Shown in pieces: positions 4,010-31,761 of a stretch of DNA of 32,034 nt. The first letter of the stretch is position 1. Every line of letters begins with the position of its first letter. The position numbers were made by a program, and so were the translations under genes. The notes beneath the pieces are model-generated. The model had not been told where the DNA came from. It worked only from the letters and a program-made list of their open reading frames with translations, and made no database searches. Source of the stretch: Candidatus Pacearchaeota archaeon (GTDB lineage: Archaea > Nanobdellota > Nanobdellia > Pacearchaeales > GW2011-AR1); contig JBJKQQ010000001.1 of the NCBI GenBank assembly GCA_046705325.1, positions 1 through 32,034 on the forward strand, written 5' to 3'.

Positions 4010-5389
4010 TCATTTCATCATAAGCCTTCGTTTGTATCCGACGACTTTGTCAAGGGCTTCTATTGCAAGATGGGGAAAAGAGAAAACAGGAACCTTTTTT
4101 TCTATCAGCATTTCCGAAAGTTTTTCCGTGAATTCAGAACCTGTTGAAACAACTACTTTTGGTTTCTTCGTGGACTTTTTCGCTTTTTCTATTATGCCAA
4201 CTACGTCTTCGCTAAGCAAGGGGGTTTGGTAAAGCGCGATTAACAGAATTAGGTCTACATTTTTGTCTTTGGAAACCTGCTTTAATGCTGTTTCATATCT
4301 TTTAGATGTTGCATCGCCCGAAATGTCCAGAGGGTTTCGGATGTTAACATAAGAAGGCATGACTTTTCTAAGCGCTTTGGAAGTTGAATCTGAAAGTTCG
4401 GCCATCTGAAGGTTTCTTGCTTCGGAAACTTTGTCTGTCGAGACTATTCCATAGCCGCCGCCGTTTGTTACAATCTGGACGCGGTTGCCTTTTGCGGTTA
4501 TTGGATTTTCAAGGATGCTGGCGATGTTGAACATCTCTTCGAGGTTGTCTGCGCGGATTAAATTCGCCTGATTGAAAATTCCAAAGTAAGTCTCTTTCTT
4601 TCCCGCGAGAGTTCCGGTGTGCGAGAGTGTTGCCTGATCTCCGGCTTTCGTAAGTCCGCCTTTAACAACTATTATAGGTTTGTTTTTTGAAATTCTTTTT
4701 GCGGTCTTGTAGAATTTTTCCCCGTCTTTGACGCCCTCGATGTACATGCAGATTACTTTCGTGTCTTTGTCTTTTGCAAGATATTCCAGATAATCAGATT
4801 CATCAAGCTGCGTTGCATTTCCATAGCTGATGAATTTCGCGAATTTGTAATCTTTTTCGGCGGCGATGTCGATGATTGCGAGGCCGATGGCCCCTGACTG
4901 GCAGACGAAGCTGATGCCGCCGGCTTTTGGCCTGCGCATTTTTGTTTTGGGTATAAACAGCGCATCCATGCTGGTATGCGCATCGAAAATTCCAAGGCAG
5001 TTCACACCGATCGCTTTCATTCCGTTTGCGTTGAGATAATCTTTTAATCTGGTTTCAGTTTCCTTGTCGCCGGTTTCTGAAAATCCTGAAGATACTATGA
5101 TGATGTTCTTGACGTTTTTTTCTTTGCACTGCTCGACTGCCGCAGAAACAAGGTTTGCAGGAATCGCGATAATTGCCAAATCTATTTTTTCTTTTGCATC
5201 TGTGATTTTAGAGTATGCGCGCTTTCCGAGAACTTCCTGTGCGTTTGGATTTATTGGAATGATTTTTCTTCCCAGTCTTTCTCCGGATTCAATCAGGTTT
5301 TTCAGGAGGACATTGCCGACTTTTTCGGGATTTCGCGAAGCTCCGATTACAGCTACCGTTTTCGGGTTGAAGAATTTTTCAAGTTCCAT
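4010..5389 (-). CDS. acdA: ADP-forming acetyl-CoA synthetase (acetate--CoA ligase), alpha subunit
   Basis: CoA-binding start AVIGASRNPEKVGN, a succinyl-CoA-ligase-like flavodoxin domain, and the phosphohistidine loop LSHTGTLAG. Length of 459 aa is typical. Its start lies 1 nt after the E2 stop. Confidence 0.85.
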   Translation of the reverse strand: MELEKFFNPKTVAVIGASRNPEKVGNVLLKNLIESGERLGRKIIPINPNAQEVLGKRAYSKITDAKEKIDLAIIAIPANLVSAAVEQCKEKNVKNIIIVSSGFSETGDKETETRLKDYLNANGMKAIGVNCLGIFDAHTSMDALFIPKTKMRRPKAGGISFVCQSGAIGLAIIDIAAEKDYKFAKFISYGNATQLDESDYLEYLAKDKDTKVICMYIEGVKDGEKFYKTAKRISKNKPIIVVKGGLTKAGDQATLSHTGTLAGKKETYFGIFNQANLIRADNLEEMFNIASILENPITAKGNRVQIVTNGGGYGIVSTDKVSEARNLQMAELSDSTSKALRKVMPSYVNIRNPLDISGDATSKRYETALKQVSKDKNVDLILLIALYQTPLLSEDVVGIIEKAKKSTKKPKVVVSTGSEFTEKLSEMLIEKKVPVFSFPHLAIEALDKVVGYKRRLMMK

Positions 5390-5390
5390 T

Positions 5391-6842
5391 TTAAAGTTCT
5401 ATGAAGAGATGATTCGGGTCTTCGAGGTATTCTTTCAGCGATTCGAGAAATCTCGCCGCCTGCGCGCCGTCCACAACCCGATGATCGAACGTAAGAGAAA
5501 TCGGAAGTTGTTTTACTTTCTTCGAGGGATTGTCCTGATTTAAGGTTTCGAAAACTCTGCCGACGCCGAGAATTGCGCTTTCGCCGGGATTGATAAGGGG
5601 AGTCGCGTAAGTTCCGCCGATCGAACCGTAGTTAGTCACAGTAAATGTTCCGCCTTTCATTTCCTCCAACGCAAGTTTTCTGTCGCGGGCTTTTTGCGCC
5701 AGCTCGCGGATTTCTTTTGAAATGTCAACTATTGATTTGTCGTCGGCATTTTTCACGACAGGAACCATGAGGCCGACAGGAGTTTCAACTGCGATTGCGA
5801 TATTGTAGTACTTCTTTACAAGAATCTCTCCTGAGTCGGTGTTGAGAGTTGCGTTGAAATACGGATGTTCTTTTAGGACCGCGATTGCGGCTTTGACGAT
5901 GAACGCCAGCAAAGTCAGATGGGTGTCTTTGAGTTTTTTGTTTTGCTTGTCTTTCAATGCCCAAAGTCTTGTGATGTTTGCGTCTTCCATTGCGGTAACC
6001 TGTGGAATCTGATGCGAGAGCGTCATGTTGTCGGAGATGACTTTTCTGATGCCTTTCAATGGAATTCTTTCTACCGTACCATGCTGATTTGAAGTTTTGG
6101 TTACCGGAATGTTTTGTTGTGCGATCGGAGAGGAGATGCTAAGATCTGATTTCAGGATTCTGCCATTTGGTCCGGAGCCTTTGATCTTTGCGAGATTGAT
6201 GTTGTGTTCTTTTGCAAGTTGCCTTACAGCCGGCGTGGTTTGGATTTTTTTGCTTTGGATCTCGCCGCTCATTGCTGCTGCCTGTGACTTGTATTCAACC
6301 GTTTCTTCTGGAGGATTTGGATTTTGAATTTCGCTTTTTTGAGGAGCAGTTTCTTCAGGCGCTTCTTCAAGCTGACCTACTACCGCCAGTCCGCGTTTTG
6401 GCGCACTGGAAGGTTTTGGAGCTGCCGTGGCTTTTGCGGTTTTAGGATTTGTTTTTGTTGCGGGAGAAGATTTTGGAGGTGTTGGCATTGCGTGAGCAGG
6501 AGTTTTTGATTTAACCGGAATAGCAATTTTTGTTGGAGGAGTTTGTGGGGTTGCTGTAGGTGAAGGTTTTGTTGCAGGTGCTGTTGTTTTAGCGGGAGCA
6601 GAACTTCCGGAACCGTTGATTGTGCAAAGGACGCCGCCAACTTTTATTGTCTGGCCTGCTTTTGCTGCGATGCTTGTGATTTTTCCCGCTTCCGGAGATG
6701 GAAGGTCTACAACAGATTTGTCAGTTTCAACCTGGACCAGATTTTGGTTTTCCTTGACGGTGTCGCCTTCTTTGACGAGCCACTTCACTACTTCGCCTTC
6801 CTGAATCCCTTCGCCGACGTCCGGAAACTTGAAATCACCCAT
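5391..6842 (-). CDS. pdhC: dihydrolipoamide acyltransferase, E2 component of a 2-oxoacid dehydrogenase complex
   Basis: Lipoyl domain VETDKSVVDLPSP, a long Pro/Ala/Thr/Lys linker, the E3/E1-binding domain TPAVRQLAKEHNINLAKIKGSGPNGRILKSDL, and the catalytic motif DHRVVDG. Substrate (pyruvate, branched-chain or acetoin) cannot be decided by eye. Confidence 0.9.
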   Translation of the reverse strand: MGDFKFPDVGEGIQEGEVVKWLVKEGDTVKENQNLVQVETDKSVVDLPSPEAGKITSIAAKAGQTIKVGGVLCTINGSGSSAPAKTTAPATKPSPTATPQTPPTKIAIPVKSKTPAHAMPTPPKSSPATKTNPKTAKATAAPKPSSAPKRGLAVVGQLEEAPEETAPQKSEIQNPNPPEETVEYKSQAAAMSGEIQSKKIQTTPAVRQLAKEHNINLAKIKGSGPNGRILKSDLSISSPIAQQNIPVTKTSNQHGTVERIPLKGIRKVISDNMTLSHQIPQVTAMEDANITRLWALKDKQNKKLKDTHLTLLAFIVKAAIAVLKEHPYFNATLNTDSGEILVKKYYNIAIAVETPVGLMVPVVKNADDKSIVDISKEIRELAQKARDRKLALEEMKGGTFTVTNYGSIGGTYATPLINPGESAILGVGRVFETLNQDNPSKKVKQLPISLTFDHRVVDGAQAARFLESLKEYLEDPNHLFIEL

Positions 6843-16688: not shown

Positions 16689-16706
16689 TGTTAATTTAAC
16701 AAAGAT

Positions 16707-16792
16707 GGCTCCATAGCTCAGCCTGGTCAGAGCACTGGACTCTTAAATCAGGAGTTATCCAGGTGTCGGGGGTTCAAATCCCTCTGGGGCCA
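16707..16792 (+). tRNA. tRNA-Lys(CUU) with an 11-nt intron at the canonical 37/38 position
   Basis: Acceptor stem GGCTCCA/TGGGGCC, D arm GCTC-AGCCTGGTCA-GAGC, anticodon stem CTGGA/TCCAG. The 18 nt between the anticodon stem strands resolve to loop CTCTTAA plus the insert AATCAGGAGTT, whose GGAG pairs with loop CUCU. T arm GGGGG-TTCAAAT-CCCTC, discriminator A, no encoded CCA. Confidence 0.85.
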
Positions 16793-16807
16793 TTTAACTT
16801 AATATTT

Positions 16808-21411: not shown

Positions 21412-24009
21412 TTAATACTCCAAACCCATCTTTTTCTGGATTATCTTGAGATGTTCTTTGTGCATACGCTTCAGGAAATCCTGTTTGTCTTCGATTCTCA
21501 TTAAATCTGTTTGGCCCTGAAGAATTAAGTTTGTTGCGAAAGGGCTCGGGATGATCGTGTCGCGGAATTCGACGCGGAGCTTTTTGTCTTTTATCCATCC
21601 TATGACCTGCTTCGCGTTTTGGATATCCATTAGGTCTTCCAAAACCTCCCGGCGGGCTTCACGGAGGATTGGGAATTCATTCGTGATCTTCTTGACTGCG
21701 TGGAGAAGGAAATGAGATTTCATCTGCTGCTTGCCGACGGTTTTGCTGTTTCCTTTGTAATTTCGCAGAATCATCAGAGCCCGGCCGGCGCAGTGCCTGA
21801 ATCTTCTTGCGAGAACGTCAGTTTTTTCAATCGCTTCCTGTAAGATCTCATCCATGTTTTTCACGTTTATGAAATTCATTGCTTTATCGATGTTGAGGCT
21901 TTCTCCAGCAAGATAGAAACCATTGTCGTTTATTCCGATTTCGATATCTCTTCCGCCTGCGCGGCCTACAAGGAATCCCAGAGCGCGGGAAAGGGCATCA
22001 TTGACACGGCGGCCGTACATGCTGTGGAAAATCAGATATTTTTTCTCGCCCTTGTAGCGTTCTACTATCATCGTCTTTTCATTTGGGATCGCGAGGAACT
22101 TGAATTGTTCATAGAAATAATCCGTGATTTTCTTTGCGGTTTCTTTGTTGACATAAAGATAATCTTTTACAAAATCCTGAATCTCGGATTTTGATTTGCC
22201 TGCCGCGAATTTCTCGGTCATGAAAAGCCTAAATTTGTTTATTTCAAGACCCGAATCAAAGCTAAGGGGAAGCATCTCGGAGAACCATGAAGGAATCGTC
22301 GGATTGAGGTGTTCGGCAGAGTTGACATAAAGATTCATTCCTCTTGAATATGCAAACTGGTATTTTCTTCCGCCGAGAACGAAAACATCGCCTTTCTTCA
22401 TTCGCTCCATGAAACCTTCGTCGATGAAACCGATTTGCTCCTGCGATTTTGTGTGTTTGACAGTAATGAAAGATTCTTCCGGTATGGTTCCGATGTTTGT
22501 CATGTACATGACACGAGCCATCTTTCCACGTTTTCCAATCTGCTTTGTTTCAGGATCGTACCAGATTTTCCCGTAGACGTGATTTTTTTCCAAATCATAT
22601 TCGCCTGCAAGATAACTTATGACGTCGAGGTAATCTTTTTTTGTTAAATCTGAATAACAGTAACTTTTCTTTATCGTGTCAAAAAGTTCGTCGATGTTCC
22701 AGATTTTGTAGATCGCCATGCCGTAAATCTGCTGCGCCAAAACGTCAAGGCAGTTTCTCGGAAATTTGATCTTGTTGATTTTCTTTTCTATCATCTCTTT
22801 TTGGATGACAGAGCATTCAACCAGATCGTCTCTGTCGGTGACTATGAATCGGCCTTTTGCGACTTCGTTCAGCTTGTGGCCTGCTCTTCCTAAACGCTGG
22901 AGGGCTCTTGCAGAAGACTTGGGAGAACCTATCATTATGACTAAGTCGATTGAACCAATATCTATTCCAAGTTCAAGGCTTGTTGAACAGACAACTACTT
23001 TTAGTTCTCCGTTTCTTAATCTTTCCTCTACATCGAATCTATGCATTTTGGAAAGCGAAGAGTGGTGCGCTGCGATGTTGTCGTCGCCGTATTCGGTCGG
23101 GAATTTTTCTTTGAGCTTGCTGACAATCCTTTCCGTTGCGGAACGCGTGTTTGTGAAGATGAGGGTTGTTTTGTTTTTGCCGATTAAATCTGCAAGAAGA
23201 GTGTAAAGGTTCGGCATCATGTTTTTGTCGCCGATTAAATCGTCTGTCGGTGTGAGAACCTCGACATCGACTTTTTTTGCGAGCGGGACGCGGGCAATTA
23301 AAACCTCGCGGTCTTTGGCTTCGCCGACAAGATATTTTCCGACTTCTTCCATCGGTTCTATTGTAGCTGACAGGCCTATTTTTGTCGGCCAGATTTGACT
23401 GATTTCATTCAATCGCTCCATTGTCAAACTCAAGTAAGTTCCGCGCTTGTTGTCCAGCGCGTGGATTTCATCTATGATGAAGAATTCTGCAGCTTTCCTG
23501 TTTTCAACGAACTTTGGGCTCGTTAACGTTATTGCCAAAGATTCAGGAGTTGTTACAAATATGTGGGGGACTTTTCTTGCCATTTTTGCCCGTTCGGATT
23601 GAGTCGTGTCGCCTGTTCTTAGGCCGACTCTTATATCCATGAGTTTGATGCCTTTGGCTTCCGCGATTGCTTTGATTTGTTCAAGAGGTTCTACAAGATT
23701 TTTGTGGATGTCGTTGCTAAGAGCTTTTAGCGGCGAAGTGTAAATCGCGTAAATCCTGTCTTCAAGAGTTCCGTTTTCCGCCTGGATGACAAGATAATTC
23801 AGGATTGACAAAAAAGCTGTAAGAGTTTTGGTGCTTCCGGTTGGCGCCGAGATTAAAATGTCTCTCCTGTTCCAAATGTTCAAAACACCATACTCCTGAG
23901 TAGGCGAGAAATCCTTGAACCTTGAGAAGAACCATTCTTTGACAAGAGGATGAAGAATGTCTCGTGTTTCTTTGTTGCTGTTTCTTTCGGCTTGGAGAAC
24001 TGTTGTCAT
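21412..24009 (-). CDS. lhr: Lhr-core type DEAD/DEAH-box superfamily 2 helicase
   Basis: Motif I SAPTGSTKT, motif II DEIH, motif III SAT, HHSSLS, motif VI QRLGRAGH, and a long Lhr-type C-terminal (DEAD-associated) region. Length of 865 aa. Confidence 0.9.
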   Translation of the reverse strand: MTTVLQAERNSNKETRDILHPLVKEWFFSRFKDFSPTQEYGVLNIWNRRDILISAPTGSTKTLTAFLSILNYLVIQAENGTLEDRIYAIYTSPLKALSNDIHKNLVEPLEQIKAIAEAKGIKLMDIRVGLRTGDTTQSERAKMARKVPHIFVTTPESLAITLTSPKFVENRKAAEFFIIDEIHALDNKRGTYLSLTMERLNEISQIWPTKIGLSATIEPMEEVGKYLVGEAKDREVLIARVPLAKKVDVEVLTPTDDLIGDKNMMPNLYTLLADLIGKNKTTLIFTNTRSATERIVSKLKEKFPTEYGDDNIAAHHSSLSKMHRFDVEERLRNGELKVVVCSTSLELGIDIGSIDLVIMIGSPKSSARALQRLGRAGHKLNEVAKGRFIVTDRDDLVECSVIQKEMIEKKINKIKFPRNCLDVLAQQIYGMAIYKIWNIDELFDTIKKSYCYSDLTKKDYLDVISYLAGEYDLEKNHVYGKIWYDPETKQIGKRGKMARVMYMTNIGTIPEESFITVKHTKSQEQIGFIDEGFMERMKKGDVFVLGGRKYQFAYSRGMNLYVNSAEHLNPTIPSWFSEMLPLSFDSGLEINKFRLFMTEKFAAGKSKSEIQDFVKDYLYVNKETAKKITDYFYEQFKFLAIPNEKTMIVERYKGEKKYLIFHSMYGRRVNDALSRALGFLVGRAGGRDIEIGINDNGFYLAGESLNIDKAMNFINVKNMDEILQEAIEKTDVLARRFRHCAGRALMILRNYKGNSKTVGKQQMKSHFLLHAVKKITNEFPILREARREVLEDLMDIQNAKQVIGWIKDKKLRVEFRDTIIPSPFATNLILQGQTDLMRIEDKQDFLKRMHKEHLKIIQKKMGLEY

Positions 24010-24087: not shown

Positions 24088-24124
24088 CTCCGCTCTTTCG
24101 AGCGGAGGGTGTCCCGAAGGAATT
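24088..24124 (-). repeat. tetraloop-hairpin element F1
   Basis: An 8-bp stem CTCCGCTC/GAGCGGAG whose loop reads GAAA on the minus strand. Followed by the 16-mer GTGTCCCGAAGGAATT (24109-24124), which reads UCC-UUCG-GGA on the minus strand. The 16-mer is identical at 25370-25385. Confidence 0.5.
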
Positions 24125-25337: not shown

Positions 25338-25385
25338 CTTAACCCGCGCTCCGGAGAGCAGAGTTAAGCGTGTCCCGAAGGAATT
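25338..25385 (-). repeat. tetraloop-hairpin element F2
   Basis: Stem CTTAAC(25338-25343)/GTTAAG(25363-25368) encloses GCTC-CGGA-GAGC, whose loop reads UCCG on the minus strand. Followed by the same 16-mer GTGTCCCGAAGGAATT (25370-25385) as in F1. Confidence 0.5.
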
Positions 25386-25717: not shown

Positions 25718-25876
25718 ATGAAATGGAAATTGAAATCTGGAAAAATAAAAGAGTATAAGAAGATGACTAAGGGAGAAAAAGAAGAGGTAGATAAAGGGAT
25801 TTTGAAAGGGGCTTTAATTGGAAGCATAGGGTTTGTTGTGGGAGAAATGTTGGGCAGTCGAGGGAGAAAAAAATAA
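25718..25876 (+). CDS. small Lys-rich protein with one glycine-zipper hydrophobic segment (52 aa)
   Basis: ATG 25718 to TAA 25874-25876: MKWKLKSGKIKEYKKMTKGEKEEVDKGILKGALIGSIGFVVGEMLGSRGRKK. Below the ORF-track cutoff. Confidence 0.3.
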   Translation: MKWKLKSGKIKEYKKMTKGEKEEVDKGILKGALIGSIGFVVGEMLGSRGRKK

Positions 25877-25968
25877 TTTTGGATTAAAAATCCAAATAAT
25901 CCATTTTTACGTGACTATGACAAACAAGAACGATAAAGTTATAAATAAGATTTATTATTCTTACTAAG

Positions 25969-26562
25969 ATGGAAATAGAACAATTAATACCAGAAATTCA
26001 AAGAATAGGTTGGGGTAATATTAAGCAGAATAAATATTTTGGTTATAGTATGGTTGATGCTCCGAAATTTGATTTAGTTGCAGAAAGAAAATTTACTTTA
26101 ACCAAATGGTTTCTTCTTATTAAAAAGATTAAAGTTTTTGATAGGAATGCTTACAATGAATATCAAATTGTTTTTAATATAATAAGTAAGAATGTAAAAA
26201 GTTGGATTTGGGGCAAATGTTTTTTACTATGTATAATTTGTGATGAAATTTCATCTGAATTAAAAAGAGATATGGAATCAGATAGTTTTGGATTATTTGG
26301 TGTTTTAAGGATGCAGGGAGGAGGTGGTTTAGCGTTAATTGTTGATGCTAAAACTAAAAGATGTTACGGCAAAATTCCAGCATTACCTTACGATGTTCAT
26401 AAATATTCGGGGGAATTTAAAGAAATGATTGAAGATTTTTTAGTCAATATAACCACAAAAGAGAAGAATAGGTCTAACATCAAAAAGGGTTATTGTAATG
26501 ATTGTGGTAAAAAAATTTCTAAAAATGCTCAATTTTGTTCAAGTTGCGGAGCTAAACAATAA
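25969..26562 (+). CDS. hypothetical protein with C-terminal zinc ribbon
   Basis: 197 aa ending in CNDCGKKISKNAQFCSSCGAKQ. The N-terminal domain is unrecognised. Very AT-rich. Confidence 0.5.
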   Translation: MEIEQLIPEIQRIGWGNIKQNKYFGYSMVDAPKFDLVAERKFTLTKWFLLIKKIKVFDRNAYNEYQIVFNIISKNVKSWIWGKCFLLCIICDEISSELKRDMESDSFGLFGVLRMQGGGGLALIVDAKTKRCYGKIPALPYDVHKYSGEFKEMIEDFLVNITTKEKNRSNIKKGYCNDCGKKISKNAQFCSSCGAKQ

Positions 26563-26568
26563 AGATGA

Positions 26569-26910
26569 TTGGTTCAAAATATTCTTAGGATGTTAGAAAA
26601 TTATATCCCTCAAATCGCCTTTGCTATTACTTCCATTATTGTGGTTTTCGTTAGTGATTATTTTTTTACAGGTACTAAGAATGGCGTGAAAACATTTTTA
26701 TCTGGAGTACATTTTTCAGCAAAAAAAGAAGGATTTATCGTCTTTTTAGTTAGCGTAGTGATTATAATTCCTCTTGTAACCATCTTTTTACAAAAAGGTT
26801 TAGAGTCTCTTTTGACGTCGCAAAAGGATAATCTCTTTTGGATACTTCTCCTTTTTCTAGCGATTTTTTTTATTTATTTTAACAAGAAATATTATCATCA
26901 TTGGCTTTAG
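26569..26910 (+). CDS. small 3-TM membrane protein
   Basis: The track start is TTG at 26569; the first ATG is at 26590. Three hydrophobic helices. Begins 7 nt after the preceding stop codon. Confidence 0.45.
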   Translation: MVQNILRMLENYIPQIAFAITSIIVVFVSDYFFTGTKNGVKTFLSGVHFSAKKEGFIVFLVSVVIIIPLVTIFLQKGLESLLTSQKDNLFWILLLFLAIFFIYFNKKYYHHWL

Positions 26911-26913
26911 TCT

Positions 26914-28251
26914 TTAATGTGCTGCAATAATCATAAGTAAAATAAATAACAAGAATAGTCCTCCCCCGATAGATAATCCCAAGGCAATTTTATCTTCGTA
27001 TAATTTCTTAAAAAAGCCCATGTGATTCCATAACTCATTGTACTCGTTCAGATTTTCTTTTTTGGCAAAGTACTTGTTTTGTATCCATAATTTTAGCGGC
27101 TTTGCATGTATCTCACAGATTGGAGTTTCTTTATCCAAGTAATCAATTTTTACATGATTATGACAAACAATTCTTCCGCAATCTGGACAGATGCTCATGT
27201 CTTCATAGTTATCTTCTTCTTTTTCGCATATTTTGCATTTTCTTAAAGTATCTTCTATATAAAATTGGTTGTTTCCTTTGATGTAGAATTCTTGTTTATA
27301 TTTTTGTTTTTGGATATTAATCTCATTTATCCAGATAGGCAAATAAATTGGTATGAACTGTTTGATATCTATATCTCTCTTTTTTGGAATGCAAGTCTTC
27401 GAATAGCCCACATTGTTATTACCAGTATAGTTAACATTATGAGTATGTTCTTTTATAATCTCATTTATAGCATGTTCTTCGATATCATTTTCTGTAAATT
27501 CAAATTGGATTTTATCTTTTTCATCTTGCTTTTCAATTTCTTCTGGATCTATTTTACCGGAGAAGAAAAATTCAGTTGCATCTTTATCTAAATCTTCGCC
27601 GGTTATTCCATCCATTGCTAAACCCCCAGAATTAGAATAAGTATCTATACATCCTACTGAAGTGTGGGTATCAAAATTAACATTATATTTAATGAAACAT
27701 GCAGGACTTAGCTCTAATTCTGATTTGATTATGGGGCTCTGTTCTTTGCTCCAATAAATCTTGGAGTAACCTCTTTTCGCTAAATCTTCTGCGCTTTCCT
27801 TGTCGATATTCCTAAAAGATTCATTTGTTATAATCTGGACTTTTCCATTAAGGATTACAACATTTAACTCATTGCAGAGTTTTTTCAATTTTGCCCCATC
27901 AATGAGTTCAATCTTTTGCTTAATCTCTTTATTGTAGTCTATCGCTTCTCTTGAAAAGTTTCCTGAAGTTACAACAATTCCCATAACTTCTTTACTCTGA
28001 TGTAGGTCTCCTTCGTGGCTCATGGCTCCTTGAAGTTTTTGAATAACTGGACGACCGACGAAATTTTGGTGCTTGCATTCAACTAGAATGATTTCTCCTT
28101 TCTGATTTTTCATAATTATATCTTTTCCGACATCTCTTGATTTTGAAGTGACTTTGATATCTTTATATCCTTTCTTCTTCATAATTTTAGCTACAAGTTC
28201 TTCAAATTGGTATCCGTCTAGACCATCTATCATGAGGGGTTTATCTTCCAT
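26914..28251 (-). CDS. Mrr-type restriction endonuclease domain fused to an unknown middle domain, a Cys-rich zinc ribbon and a C-terminal TM anchor
   Basis: N-terminus GYQFEELVAKIMKKKGY...SRDVGKDII...ILVECKH...VVTSGNFSREAIDY...LIDGAKL matches the Mrr_cat PD-(D/E)xK layout (D, ExK). Followed by CKICEKE...CPDCGRIVCHNH...CEIH, and ends in IALGLSIGGGLFLLFILLMIIAAH. Confidence 0.75.
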   Translation of the reverse strand: MEDKPLMIDGLDGYQFEELVAKIMKKKGYKDIKVTSKSRDVGKDIIMKNQKGEIILVECKHQNFVGRPVIQKLQGAMSHEGDLHQSKEVMGIVVTSGNFSREAIDYNKEIKQKIELIDGAKLKKLCNELNVVILNGKVQIITNESFRNIDKESAEDLAKRGYSKIYWSKEQSPIIKSELELSPACFIKYNVNFDTHTSVGCIDTYSNSGGLAMDGITGEDLDKDATEFFFSGKIDPEEIEKQDEKDKIQFEFTENDIEEHAINEIIKEHTHNVNYTGNNNVGYSKTCIPKKRDIDIKQFIPIYLPIWINEINIQKQKYKQEFYIKGNNQFYIEDTLRKCKICEKEEDNYEDMSICPDCGRIVCHNHVKIDYLDKETPICEIHAKPLKLWIQNKYFAKKENLNEYNELWNHMGFFKKLYEDKIALGLSIGGGLFLLFILLMIIAAH

Positions 28252-28383
28252 CTTTCTAAATTATCTATATTAACGAACTATAAAAAGATTCTTGCAAATT
28301 AGATTTTCTTAGAATTCTATTTTCTTTCAAAACAAAGAATTATTCTCTCTTGACTTGGGTTGTGAGGTTTGTGAGATTGAGAA

Positions 28384-28803
28384 TTAATCTTGTGATTCTT
28401 TCTTTTTCTCTAAGATTAATGATACAAATACAGTTACTGAAGATAGAAAGTATCCCAAAGTGTTTATTATATATGATCTTCTATCAGTTTTGTTTGTTGA
28501 AATATCAAAAGAATTTATTTCTGAGACTATTGATGGATTCACGCAAAGATGAGATTCCTTATTTAATTCATTTAAAGTGAGATTCAAATTGGATTGATTT
28601 GAAGAAAGAATCATTGCGCTTCCTCCGGGACCGCTAATCGCCCCAACACAATCGATAACTTTGAGATCTCCATACCCCACATTAAGAGTTGGAACATAAA
28701 TAGATTGGAAAGCTAATGCTAAATTCATGACTGTTAAAATTAAAAAAACAATTCCTAACACAAGAAGAGTAGTATTGAGAGCAAATTTAATTTTTTTGGC
28801 CAT
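28384..28803 (-). CDS. membrane or surface protein with N- and C-terminal TM segments
   Basis: Starts MAKKIKFALNTTLLVLGIVFLILTVMNLALAF, then has an Asn/Ser-rich middle and a C-terminal hydrophobic helix. Confidence 0.45.
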   Translation of the reverse strand: MAKKIKFALNTTLLVLGIVFLILTVMNLALAFQSIYVPTLNVGYGDLKVIDCVGAISGPGGSAMILSSNQSNLNLTLNELNKESHLCVNPSIVSEINSFDISTNKTDRRSYIINTLGYFLSSVTVFVSLILEKKKESQD

Positions 28804-29323: not shown

Positions 29324-30151
29324 TTACAAATTATCAAGCGGACTTGTTATGTTTTTTAACTGATTATTTGCAACGTGAGTGTAAATCTCCGTGGTCTTGG
29401 ATGAGGCGTGGCCGAGCAGCTTTTGGATGTATCTCAAGTCTGTTCCATTTTCCAGAAGATGCGTCGCAAAACTATGGCGAAGCATGTGCGGATGGATTTT
29501 CATGCCAATTTTGCCTCCAAGTCTTTCAAGAATTTTTTGGACCGACTTTTTGGTGTATTTCCCGTTTCGGCCTTCGAAAACGTAATCTGTTGAGAAATTA
29601 AAATTACTGTAATACTTTAACAGATCCTCTTTAAGATTTGGCGACAGTAAAGTTATCCTGTCTTTAGCGCCTTTGCCCTGCCTGACAAAAATCAGGTTGT
29701 TGTCAAAATCGATGTCTCTCCTTTTAAGATTCAAGAGTTCGGAAAGTCGCAAACCTGAAGAGTAAAGAAATTCTATTATCAATTTGTGCTTTAGATTGGC
29801 GCAGGAATCAATTATGAGTTTTATCTTTTCTTTTGAAATCACTTGCGGAAGCTTCTTCTCTTTTTTCATTAGTGGAATTTCGTCCGCAGAGAATGGTCTT
29901 TTCAAGACTTCTGAAAAGAAAAACTTGAGCGACATTTGCCTTAACCTCAAAGTGTTTCTTGCTTTTTCTTGCGACAGCAAATAGGACTTAACCGCTTCGT
30001 TGTCCAGGTTTAATCTACTTTTGTCGATAAATTCAAGAAATTTCTCCACATTGTAAGAATAAGATTTTATCGTCTGCGGGCTGAAACCCTTTAATTTACA
30101 CCTTTCAACAAGCTTGTCAAGAAAGCTTTGCTTAGAAATCAGATAACTCAT
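29324..30151 (-). CDS. xerA: tyrosine recombinase, XerA/XerCD family
   Basis: N-terminal SAM-like domain. Catalytic residues in GLRLSEL (R), GKGAKDR (K), HMLRHSFATHLL (H-x-x-R), LLGHAS (H) and TEIYTHV (Y). Length of 275 aa. Confidence 0.9.
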   Translation of the reverse strand: MSYLISKQSFLDKLVERCKLKGFSPQTIKSYSYNVEKFLEFIDKSRLNLDNEAVKSYLLSQEKARNTLRLRQMSLKFFFSEVLKRPFSADEIPLMKKEKKLPQVISKEKIKLIIDSCANLKHKLIIEFLYSSGLRLSELLNLKRRDIDFDNNLIFVRQGKGAKDRITLLSPNLKEDLLKYYSNFNFSTDYVFEGRNGKYTKKSVQKILERLGGKIGMKIHPHMLRHSFATHLLENGTDLRYIQKLLGHASSKTTEIYTHVANNQLKNITSPLDNL

Positions 30152-31053: not shown

Positions 31054-31761
31054 TTATTTCAAGTTTCTTAAAAATTCTTTTTCAAGAGTATCAAATTTTA
31101 TTCCCAAAATTTCTTCAAAATCTTTTATAACTTCGTTTATTGGATTTTTCCATTTTATTTTCTTGTATAATTCGATAAATCTTTCGAACGAGAATTTTTC
31201 AATTAAGTAACTCACCAAATATCCACTTTGACGATACGAATAATCCCAATTTAATTCTCTAAATTTAGAATCATCACATAATTCTCTCAATGAGAAATTT
31301 CTTTTTCTTAATATTCCCAAAATTTTATCTGGAACTTTTTCTTTCCAATCTCCATAATAAACTGCTAATCCTTCACAAAGAGCATAATTGGGTTTACCAA
31401 GAAAATTAAAAACCCAGACATGAGTAATTTCATGAAAATGATTTATGTTATTTGACCAAATTCTCCATTTTTCTGATTCAGCTCTGCAAGTTCCTTCCTT
31501 CATTTTTGTAAATTTAGAAAGCTCTTTTTTATCTTCCACAATAAAATAATCAAGTTTTCTGTTGGATTTTATCCTAAATTTTTTCTTCAATAGATTTACA
31601 AATTTATCTGCTTCTTTGATGTCTTTCTTTAAAATCTTCTTGTTAATCAATCTGCAATAAAAATTGAAATTTTGGGATTCTTCAAAAACCCATTCTTTTC
31701 CAAATTTTTTTATCTTCATACTCTTCTTAGGAAATTGTGTTTTATATATTTTCTTTTCCAA
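31054..31761 (-). CDS. peptidase-MA-like zinc metalloprotease (HExxH...E)
   Basis: HEITHVWVFNFLGKPNYALCEGLAVYYG matches the gluzincin / Peptidase_MA_2 pattern. Length of 235 aa. Confidence 0.55.
   Translation of the reverse strand: MEKKIYKTQFPKKSMKIKKFGKEWVFEESQNFNFYCRLINKKILKKDIKEADKFVNLLKKKFRIKSNRKLDYFIVEDKKELSKFTKMKEGTCRAESEKWRIWSNNINHFHEITHVWVFNFLGKPNYALCEGLAVYYGDWKEKVPDKILGILRKRNFSLRELCDDSKFRELNWDYSYRQSGYLVSYLIEKFSFERFIELYKKIKWKNPINEVIKDFEEILGIKFDTLEKEFLRNLK

Follow-up and report, generated by a model that had tools for sequence, protein, structure and literature searches.

The stretch of DNA analyzed here (the window) comprises 32,034 nucleotides (nt), positions 1 to 32,034 of contig JBJKQQ010000001.1 from a Candidatus Pacearchaeota archaeon (GCA_046705325.1). 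Its most AT-rich part, positions 25969 to 28803, holds four genes, one of which encodes a 445-amino-acid (aa) protein of the Mrr nuclease family whose C terminus carries a predicted membrane anchor. This nuclease gene (26914 to 28251, minus strand) is the only conserved element of the block. Two plus-strand genes converge on it: the first encodes a 197-aa protein with a C-terminal zinc ribbon (25969 to 26562; PF13240, E 4.7e-7), and the second, which begins 6 nt further on, encodes a 113-aa protein with about three hydrophobic, putatively transmembrane (TM), segments (26569 to 26910) and ends 3 nt short of the nuclease gene. On the other side, 132 nt upstream of the nuclease gene and likewise on the minus strand, lies a gene for a 139-aa protein with two hydrophobic segments (28384 to 28803). 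No methylase, ATPase, or specificity subunit is encoded within the block. At a GC content of 0.305, the block is the lowest-GC stretch of the window (mean of equal-sized windows, 0.395; standard deviation, 0.038), with only 1.4% of equal-sized windows reaching a value as low. The GC content at third codon positions (GC3) tells the same story, ranging from 0.18 (in the gene for the 197-aa protein) to 0.29 in the four block genes versus 0.43 to 0.55 in core genes. The low GC content of the block is not a matter of chance, and its composition is foreign, with the compositionally foreign stretch running from about 25.7 to 28.85 kb. An initial annotation of the locus had described the AT-rich block, the fusion of an Mrr nuclease to an unrecognized region, a Cys/His-rich ribbon, and a C-terminal anchor, the convergent gene pair with its 3-nt gap, the protein with two TM segments upstream, and the lack of a methylase, ATPase, or specificity subunit, and on all of these points it was correct.

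The same annotation had proposed that the four genes make up a single module and had itself named a lack of co-occurrence in other genomes as a result that would speak against this proposal. We assembled approximately 170 to 178 loci that contain a homologue of the 445-aa protein, drawn from assemblies, from one genome per species, and from metagenome contigs; 24 of these represent distinct non-haloarchaeal contexts. When these loci were searched by tblastn, none proved to hold a homologue of the 197-aa, 113-aa, or 139-aa protein. The 139-aa protein has no homologue besides itself among 5.8 billion protein clusters, and the 113-aa protein has no family match in Pfam, NCBIfam, PADLOC, or PHROGs. 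Of the 11 homologue clusters of the 197-aa protein, most lack the zinc ribbon; no Mrr-like gene occurs in the contexts of these relatives, and downstream of the closest of them (76% identity) comes a gene for a TM protein that shares no detectable similarity with the 113-aa protein. At most loci, there is no small membrane protein adjoining the nuclease gene, and no neighbor is common to the 24 non-haloarchaeal contexts or to the ~170 loci as a whole. PADLOC returned no match for any of the three neighboring proteins. The four genes are not a conserved module, and the single conserved unit is the minus-strand gene at 26914 to 28251.

The protein encoded by this gene belongs to a family of about 85 full-length homologue clusters (25 to 76% identity). 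Its N-terminal domain (aa 9 to 126; 27874 to 28227, minus strand) is an Mrr-type PD-(D/E)xK nuclease domain that scores 90.3 bits against PF04471 (Mrr_cat; cutoff, 21 bits; E 1.2e-25). The catalytic residues are D44 (within GKDII), E58, and K60 (within E58-C-K60), joined by D40 and Q71/K72. Conservation of this site is strict: D40, G42, D44, E58, C59, K60, G66-R67-P68, and Q71-K72 are invariant in 40 of 40 aligned homologues, and the DxGxD and ECK motifs are kept in all 86 full-length members. An AlphaFold2 model of the 445-aa protein has a mean pLDDT of 89, and in Foldseek searches its nuclease domain matches MspJI (4f0q; E 1.9e-5), AspBHI, AF1548 (1y88), and NucS/EndoMS (2vld and 5gke). By sequence threshold, catalytic residues, and fold, the protein is a member of the Mrr nuclease family.

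The remaining two-thirds of the protein (aa 130 to 445) has no domain match in Pfam, NCBIfam, PADLOC, or PHROGs. Its largest part is a beta-rich middle domain (aa ~140 to 335; 27247 to 27834, minus strand), recognizable by motifs (TSVG at aa 197 to 200 and Y275-x-G-x-N-N-V-x-Y-x-K-x-C-x-P...D-I) that are conserved in DPANN, methanogen, and haloarchaeal members of the family (84 sequences). A separate model of aa 136 to 402 (pLDDT, 90.9) has no significant Foldseek match in the PDB (best E, 0.15), and the full model compared with the PDB and BFVD yields matches to the nuclease domain only. A sequence-profile search of the PDB added only weak matches to FYVE domains and AF1548.

The middle domain is followed by a zinc finger (aa 336 to 385; 27097 to 27246, minus strand) built from the clusters CKIC (339 to 342), CPDC (355 to 358), CHNH (363 to 366), and CEIH (379 to 382), with C339, C342, C355, C358, C363, H366, C379, and H/C382 as conserved ligands. 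Eight ligands suggest a binuclear, cross-braced finger, which is probably FYVE-like: Foldseek finds local matches to the FYVE domains 3t7l, 2yw8, and 1y02 (probability, 0.91 to 0.97), and there are weak sequence matches to FYVE, DUF2180, and Prok-RING. A short helical linker then leads to a C-terminal TM helix (aa ~421 to 444; 26920 to 26991, minus strand), which is helical in the AlphaFold2 model and is followed by a single residue. In 85 of the 86 full-length members, from DPANN to haloarchaea, the last 45 residues include a hydrophobic 19-mer. Because the protein has no hydrophobic segment at its N terminus and only one residue beyond the TM helix, it is predicted to be tail anchored, with all of its soluble parts in the cytoplasm. 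The libraries searched match only the nuclease domain, and literature searches on Mrr in DPANN archaea, on tail-anchored archaeal restriction enzymes, and on the haloarchaeal DUF neighbors of the family returned no description of this architecture, in agreement with the initial view that it does not correspond to a described system. What is new is the joining of an Mrr-type nuclease to putative recognition and anchoring parts of undescribed architecture.

Relatives of the protein number 318 among 185,579 species representatives, with at least 417 more in metagenome contigs, and in public records members of the family are labeled plainly as "restriction endonuclease." Their hosts are DPANN archaea (Woese-, Pace-, Nano-, and Micrarchaeota), Methanomicrobiales, Methanosarcina, Nanosalinarum, and, above all, Halobacteria; approximately 12 DPANN genomes appear among the best 80 of the 318 matches. 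Many of the haloarchaeal copies are plasmid-borne, and several haloarchaeal genomes have two copies. Altogether, 76 plasmid records carry the family, all of them archaeal and 74 with a nearly full-length protein, including pHM300 of Haloferax mediterranei (HFX_RS16245; WP_004056203.1) and 13 Halobacterium plasmids. On a pT26-2-like plasmid of Methanocaldococcus fervens (CP001697; locus L008, 7731 to 11374), the family gene lies 11 nt after the gene for the MCM helicase, and the two are probably cotranscribed. The haloarchaeal copies share a recurrent plasmid or mobile-element backbone (loci L024 to L091, e.g., L061, L072, and L082) in which a divergent DUF6166 gene lies upstream of the family gene (median distance, 123 nt; 27 loci), further accompanied by DUF7567, DUF7568, a Mom-like protein, and DUF6610. 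The last of these is DpdA4, of the 7-deazaguanine DNA transglycosylase family (PMC10516641). The C-terminal tails of the haloarchaeal proteins hardly differ from one genus to the next, a similarity suggestive of recent spread. Computationally, the family is accessory and horizontally mobile. A viral origin was considered and set aside, there being no full-length relative in IMG/VR or among GenBank phages.

Defense genes or mobile-element genes neighbor the family gene in a substantial minority of contexts. The densest is a DPANN defense island around a 71%-identical homologue (L099, 1 to 9293), with a nucleotidyltransferase, a PD-(D/E)xK nuclease, a GmrSD_N-HEPN-DUF5655 fusion, a MazG-like protein, a Schlafen-type helicase, RadC, and ParE. 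Elsewhere, the family gene lies near MamI-type restriction-modification genes and ParE (L001), next to a DndB-like protein (L023), or near a VirB4/TraG-like ATPase (L105), and toxin-antitoxin genes occur near it in the window (two pairs) as well as in L001, L012, and L099. A PADLOC scan of 143 neighbors from the 24 non-haloarchaeal loci was dominated by generic helicase models and is unusable as a measure of defense enrichment. The defense role suggested in the initial annotation receives support insofar as several relatives of the nuclease sit among defense or mobile-element genes, but not in its multigene form. In L023 (4971 to 6322), from the complete Woesearchaeota chromosome OZ242164.1, the family gene reads as two overlapping open reading frames (ORFs; 263 and 199 aa), which points either to a pseudogene with a frameshift or to a fault in the assembly.

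The middle domain also occurs with other enzymatic heads. A profile of aa 136 to 402 retrieves 345 clusters at 50% identity, most of which possess an N-terminal Mrr domain. Elsewhere, the middle domain and zinc finger are fused to a Ser/Thr kinase (P0242), to DnaJ (P0127), to a C-terminal RNase T exonuclease (P0244, from Sigynarchaeota), or to TPR repeats (P0228, from Heimdallarchaeota), and the Mrr form itself was found in one Nitrospirota bacterium (P0206). The kinase, DnaJ, and Nitrospirota proteins likewise end in TM segments. Effector swapping on a common module is frequent in conflict systems. At one locus (L015), an RNase T-type exonuclease gene (4212 to 4991) lies 3 nt upstream of the Mrr fusion (4995 to 6329), an arrangement that recalls the fused P0244 and might reflect a functional link.

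The window also preserves evidence of gene turnover. Downstream of the intact nuclease gene, beyond the two plus-strand genes, another allele has left a degenerate remnant of its 3' part (25727 to 25928, minus strand). It was identified by a 38-nt repeat (25890 to 25927 versus 27133 to 27170; 89% identity, with none expected by chance) and by a collinear match to a gene end. Read in frame on the minus strand, the repeat encodes LVCHSHVKMDYLD, the conserved zinc-finger motif at aa 361 to 373; it is 92 to 94% identical to the alleles of L001 and L101 versus 89% to the resident gene. The second, collinear match pairs 25727 to 25758 with the 3' end of the L102 gene, and a profile search found no further homology. 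A 52-aa ORF (25718 to 25876, plus strand) overlaps the relic on the opposite strand, has no family match, ends in a hairpin (TTTGGATTAAAAATCCAAA), and is probably not a real gene. On the simplest reading, the intact nuclease gene and the two genes converging on it probably arrived jointly, replacing most of an older copy. On this reading, the genes were physically linked in a donor, which does not establish a functional link.

The flanks of the block are of mixed character. On one side lie two toxin-antitoxin pairs (ParE with an antitoxin and a RelE-like toxin with a MazE/AbrB-type antitoxin), and on the other lie a winged helix-turn-helix (wHTH) protein, whose gene has host-like GC3, and a tyrosine recombinase (29324 to 30151, minus strand). 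Because the recombinase passes the XerA equivalog cutoff (NCBIfam NF040815, recomb_XerA_Arch; 236.9 bits versus 220) and has a host-like GC3 (0.45), it is probably a housekeeping XerA that marks the boundary from outside the acquired block and not the integrase of a mobile element. An integrase-bounded island was accordingly rejected: the sole tRNA gene of the window (16706 to 16793) is far from the block, and a repeat search of the window found no att-like repeats bracketing it. Of the accessory or defense-island setting that had been proposed for the block, the toxin-antitoxin, wHTH, and recombinase genes are all present, but the recombinase does not read as a mobile one. No structured RNA was found between 24000 and 32034 (Rfam, E ≤ 0.01).

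Several further observations concern the surroundings of the block. The recombinase of L001 (5096 to 5899) also passes the XerA equivalog (242.5 bits) and is 42% identical to that of the window, such that xerA lies near the nuclease gene both in the window and in L001, its closest long-contig relative. Both toxin-antitoxin pairs lie between the copies of a 19-nt direct repeat, AGGGTGTCCCGAAGGAATT (24106 to 24124 and 25367 to 25385; 18 of 19 positions identical, with none expected by chance); the copies are situated in relatively GC-rich noncoding stretches without an Rfam match, and a hairpin (CTCCGCTC-TTTC-GAGCGGAG) precedes the first copy. The repeat may be a cassette-insertion scar or a small repeated element. 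An Lhr-type helicase of the window (21412 to 24009) is 71% identical to that of L011 (1007 to 3595), and although it lies less than 3 kb from the nuclease gene in both, it does so on opposite sides, which suggests related genomes in which the surroundings of an accessory spot were rearranged. A 235-aa ORF near the window's edge (31054 to 31761, minus strand), with a GC content of 0.256 and no NCBIfam match, is also compositionally foreign.

The best-supported reading, at a rough probability of 0.45, is that the 445-aa protein works on its own as an endonuclease that is horizontally mobile, tethered to the membrane, and used in defense or exclusion. The C-terminal anchor would keep the nuclease at the inner membrane surface, off the chromosome and nucleoid; the middle domain and zinc finger would form a recognition or adaptor part, directed at DNA or at an entry-associated protein; and the nuclease would cut foreign DNA, whether of a virus or a plasmid, at or near its point of entry. 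Arguing for this reading are the intact enzyme, the retained anchor, the lack of any constant neighbor or conserved partner, mobility and plasmid carriage, the foreign composition of the block and the relic allele within the window, the defense genes among its neighbors, effector swapping on the middle domain, and the mechanistic precedent of SNIPE (discussed below). From these properties, we infer nuclease activity, a membrane location, a target, and a role in defense.

Several points weigh against such a role. The defense-island signal is only partial, because many DPANN copies sit amid housekeeping genes (SRP54, GINS, NDK, and S3Ae; GatB; EF-1alpha; L1; DnaG; ribonucleotide reductase; GAPDH; gyrase). 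Searches of Pfam, NCBIfam, PADLOC, and PDB folds found in the protein no domain known to read modifications or to bind DNA, such as an Mrr_N winged helix or SRA. Viral collections (IMG/VR and GenBank phages) hold no full-length member, a result that is neutral with respect to virus-virus exclusion. A regulatory or proteostatic role at the membrane would be equally in keeping with the forms in which the middle domain is joined to a kinase, DnaJ, or TPR repeats. The nuclease domain barely passes the threshold of a Pfam family of inactive restriction endonucleases (NA-iREase1; 27.8 bits versus 27), although an inactive domain is unlikely because the catalytic residues are invariant.

The housekeeping neighbors raise the question of whether the protein is instead a physiological membrane nuclease that would process membrane-proximal DNA, whether in the salvage or uptake of nucleotides by DPANN archaea that rely on hosts for them or, alternatively, in DNA repair or segregation. 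Genes for replication, repair, and nucleotide metabolism surround many of the DPANN copies (NDK, GINS, NUDIX, nucleoside phosphorylase, DnaG, ribonucleotide reductase, gyrase A, and a UvrD-nuclease), the Lhr helicase is close by in both the window and L011, and identity across DPANN lineages is 55 to 76%. Such identity between deeply divergent phyla, however, suits recent transfer more than vertical descent; the family is rare and patchy, as its small DPANN share among the best matches attests; it is foreign in composition in the window, and one copy reads as split; it is plasmid-borne in haloarchaea and M. fervens, with several copies in some genomes; and a nuclease domain predicted to be cytoplasmic could not reach external DNA. 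We regard a housekeeping function as quite unlikely. Plasmid carriage lends itself to another explanation, namely, that the nuclease serves plasmids or integrated elements, either in replication, processing, or partition at the membrane or by degrading host or competitor DNA that lacks the modifications of the element. The position just behind the MCM gene in M. fervens, the 76 plasmid records, and the recurrent haloarchaeal backbone (DUF6166, DUF7567, DUF7568, Mom-like protein, and DUF6610) are all consistent with it, but the gene is solitary in DPANN chromosomes, with no element replication or partition genes nearby, its neighbors on pHM300 of H. mediterranei are metabolic, and the viral collections contain no full-length member; service to a mobile element is thus an unlikely function.

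An abortive-infection toxin, in which the nuclease would be inactive at the membrane and upon infection or membrane damage would be released or activated to degrade the DNA of its own cell, shares its anatomy entirely with the direct-defense reading, and sequence cannot separate the two. Since the bacterial membrane-anchored nuclease SNIPE (discussed below) is toxic to its host once the anchor is removed, membrane sequestration can mask a self-damaging nuclease, and the toxin-antitoxin genes beside the nuclease gene in the window, L001, L012, and L099 would suit such a role. The gene has, however, no conserved companion in the form of a sensor NTPase or an antitoxin-like protein and no conserved protease site, and we hold the toxin to be distinctly improbable. 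It is very unlikely that the four genes at 25969 to 28803 constitute one multicomponent defense or abortive-infection module in which the small membrane and zinc-ribbon proteins act as partners or sensors for the nuclease. The tight packing (gaps of 6 and 3 nt), the very low GC3 common to all four genes, the position of the relic allele, which suggests that the nuclease gene and its two convergent neighbors came as one block, and the presence of some small TM protein next to the family gene in L008, L011, L018, and L020 all invite this interpretation. It is largely refuted by the failure of the three neighbors to recur beside any family member at ~170 loci; in addition, the 139-aa protein has no relatives, those of the 197-aa protein have no Mrr-like gene with them and mostly no zinc ribbon, most loci lack an adjoining membrane protein, and PADLOC recognizes none of the three. 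The case is a reminder, for scans of this kind, that genes packed closely together and foreign in composition can be neighbors by accident.

Archaeal antiviral and antiplasmid defense is much less mapped than its bacterial equivalent, and DPANN and haloarchaeal genomes are full of genes named merely "restriction endonuclease." Behind this label stands a family with hundreds of members, present in model haloarchaea such as H. mediterranei and Halobacterium salinarum and strongly conserved over its full length, although no recognized fold or function covers two-thirds of the protein. Should the 445-aa protein prove to be a membrane-tethered defense nuclease, spatial discrimination of self from nonself, recently shown for bacterial SNIPE, would extend to archaea by way of an unrelated protein, and the middle region would constitute a previously undefined sensor or adaptor domain shared with other effectors. 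Were it to serve a mobile element or a housekeeping function instead, it would still represent a conserved, membrane-associated DNA enzyme.

Among known systems, the nearest by catalytic domain are the Mrr/type IV enzymes (Escherichia coli Mrr, MspJI, and AspBHI), which possess the same PF04471 domain with its D...(D/E)xK residues and are likewise single polypeptides without a cognate methyltransferase. The domain order, however, is reversed, with the nuclease at the N terminus of the 445-aa protein, and a beta-rich domain and two-zinc finger take the place where Mrr_N, SRA, or another reader would be. To our knowledge, classical type IV enzymes have no C-terminal membrane anchor. Membership in this class is not established, because the protein contains no known modification reader. 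Known defense systems were ruled out by a PADLOC search, one of the checks advised in the initial annotation, whose best matches, to PDC-S02 (E 2.8e-18) and ZorD of Zorya (1e-12), are confined to the nuclease domain (aa 8 to 142), align to the C-terminal end of those models, and leave the remaining 300 residues unmatched; the window contains no ZorA, ZorB, or ZorC gene and no SNF2 helicase. The zinc finger resembles the cross-brace fingers of FYVE and RING type in its eight Cys/His ligands and local structure, and it adjoins a membrane anchor. Its score against the FYVE family (PF01363) is nevertheless below threshold (16.0 bits versus 27.8), and the basic (R/K)(R/K)HHCR motif that binds lipids is absent, the corresponding segment reading GRIVCHNH.

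The closest parallel in overall design is SNIPE (PD-lambda-1), a single membrane-anchored bacterial nuclease that cleaves phage DNA during injection (PMC13190303). Anchoring sequesters SNIPE from host DNA and prevents autoimmunity, and removal of the anchor leads to host toxicity (PMC13190303). From its N to its C terminus, SNIPE runs from a TM helix through DUF4041 to a GIY-YIG nuclease; its homologues diversify in their noncatalytic parts (PMC13190303). The 445-aa protein has neither a DUF4041 nor a GIY-YIG match in Pfam and no PD-lambda-1 match in PADLOC, and its likeness to SNIPE is architectural only, with no homologous domain. Both are encoded by one gene. SNIPE combines one anchor, a middle domain of unknown nature, and a cytoplasmic nuclease; the 445-aa protein also has such a middle domain and is predicted to have a single anchor and its nuclease in the cytoplasm, but the order is mirrored here (Mrr, new domain, zinc finger, and C-terminal TM helix). 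With few exceptions, moreover, the members of its family are archaeal. By analogy, and with considerable doubt, the family could be viewed as the archaeal counterpart of the SNIPE strategy, in which self and foreign DNA would be told apart by location during DNA entry as opposed to sequence or modification. The beta-rich domain and FYVE-like finger would then form an undescribed membrane-proximal sensor or adaptor, which archaea, including Asgard lineages, would pair with Mrr, Ser/Thr kinase, DnaJ, and RNase T heads.

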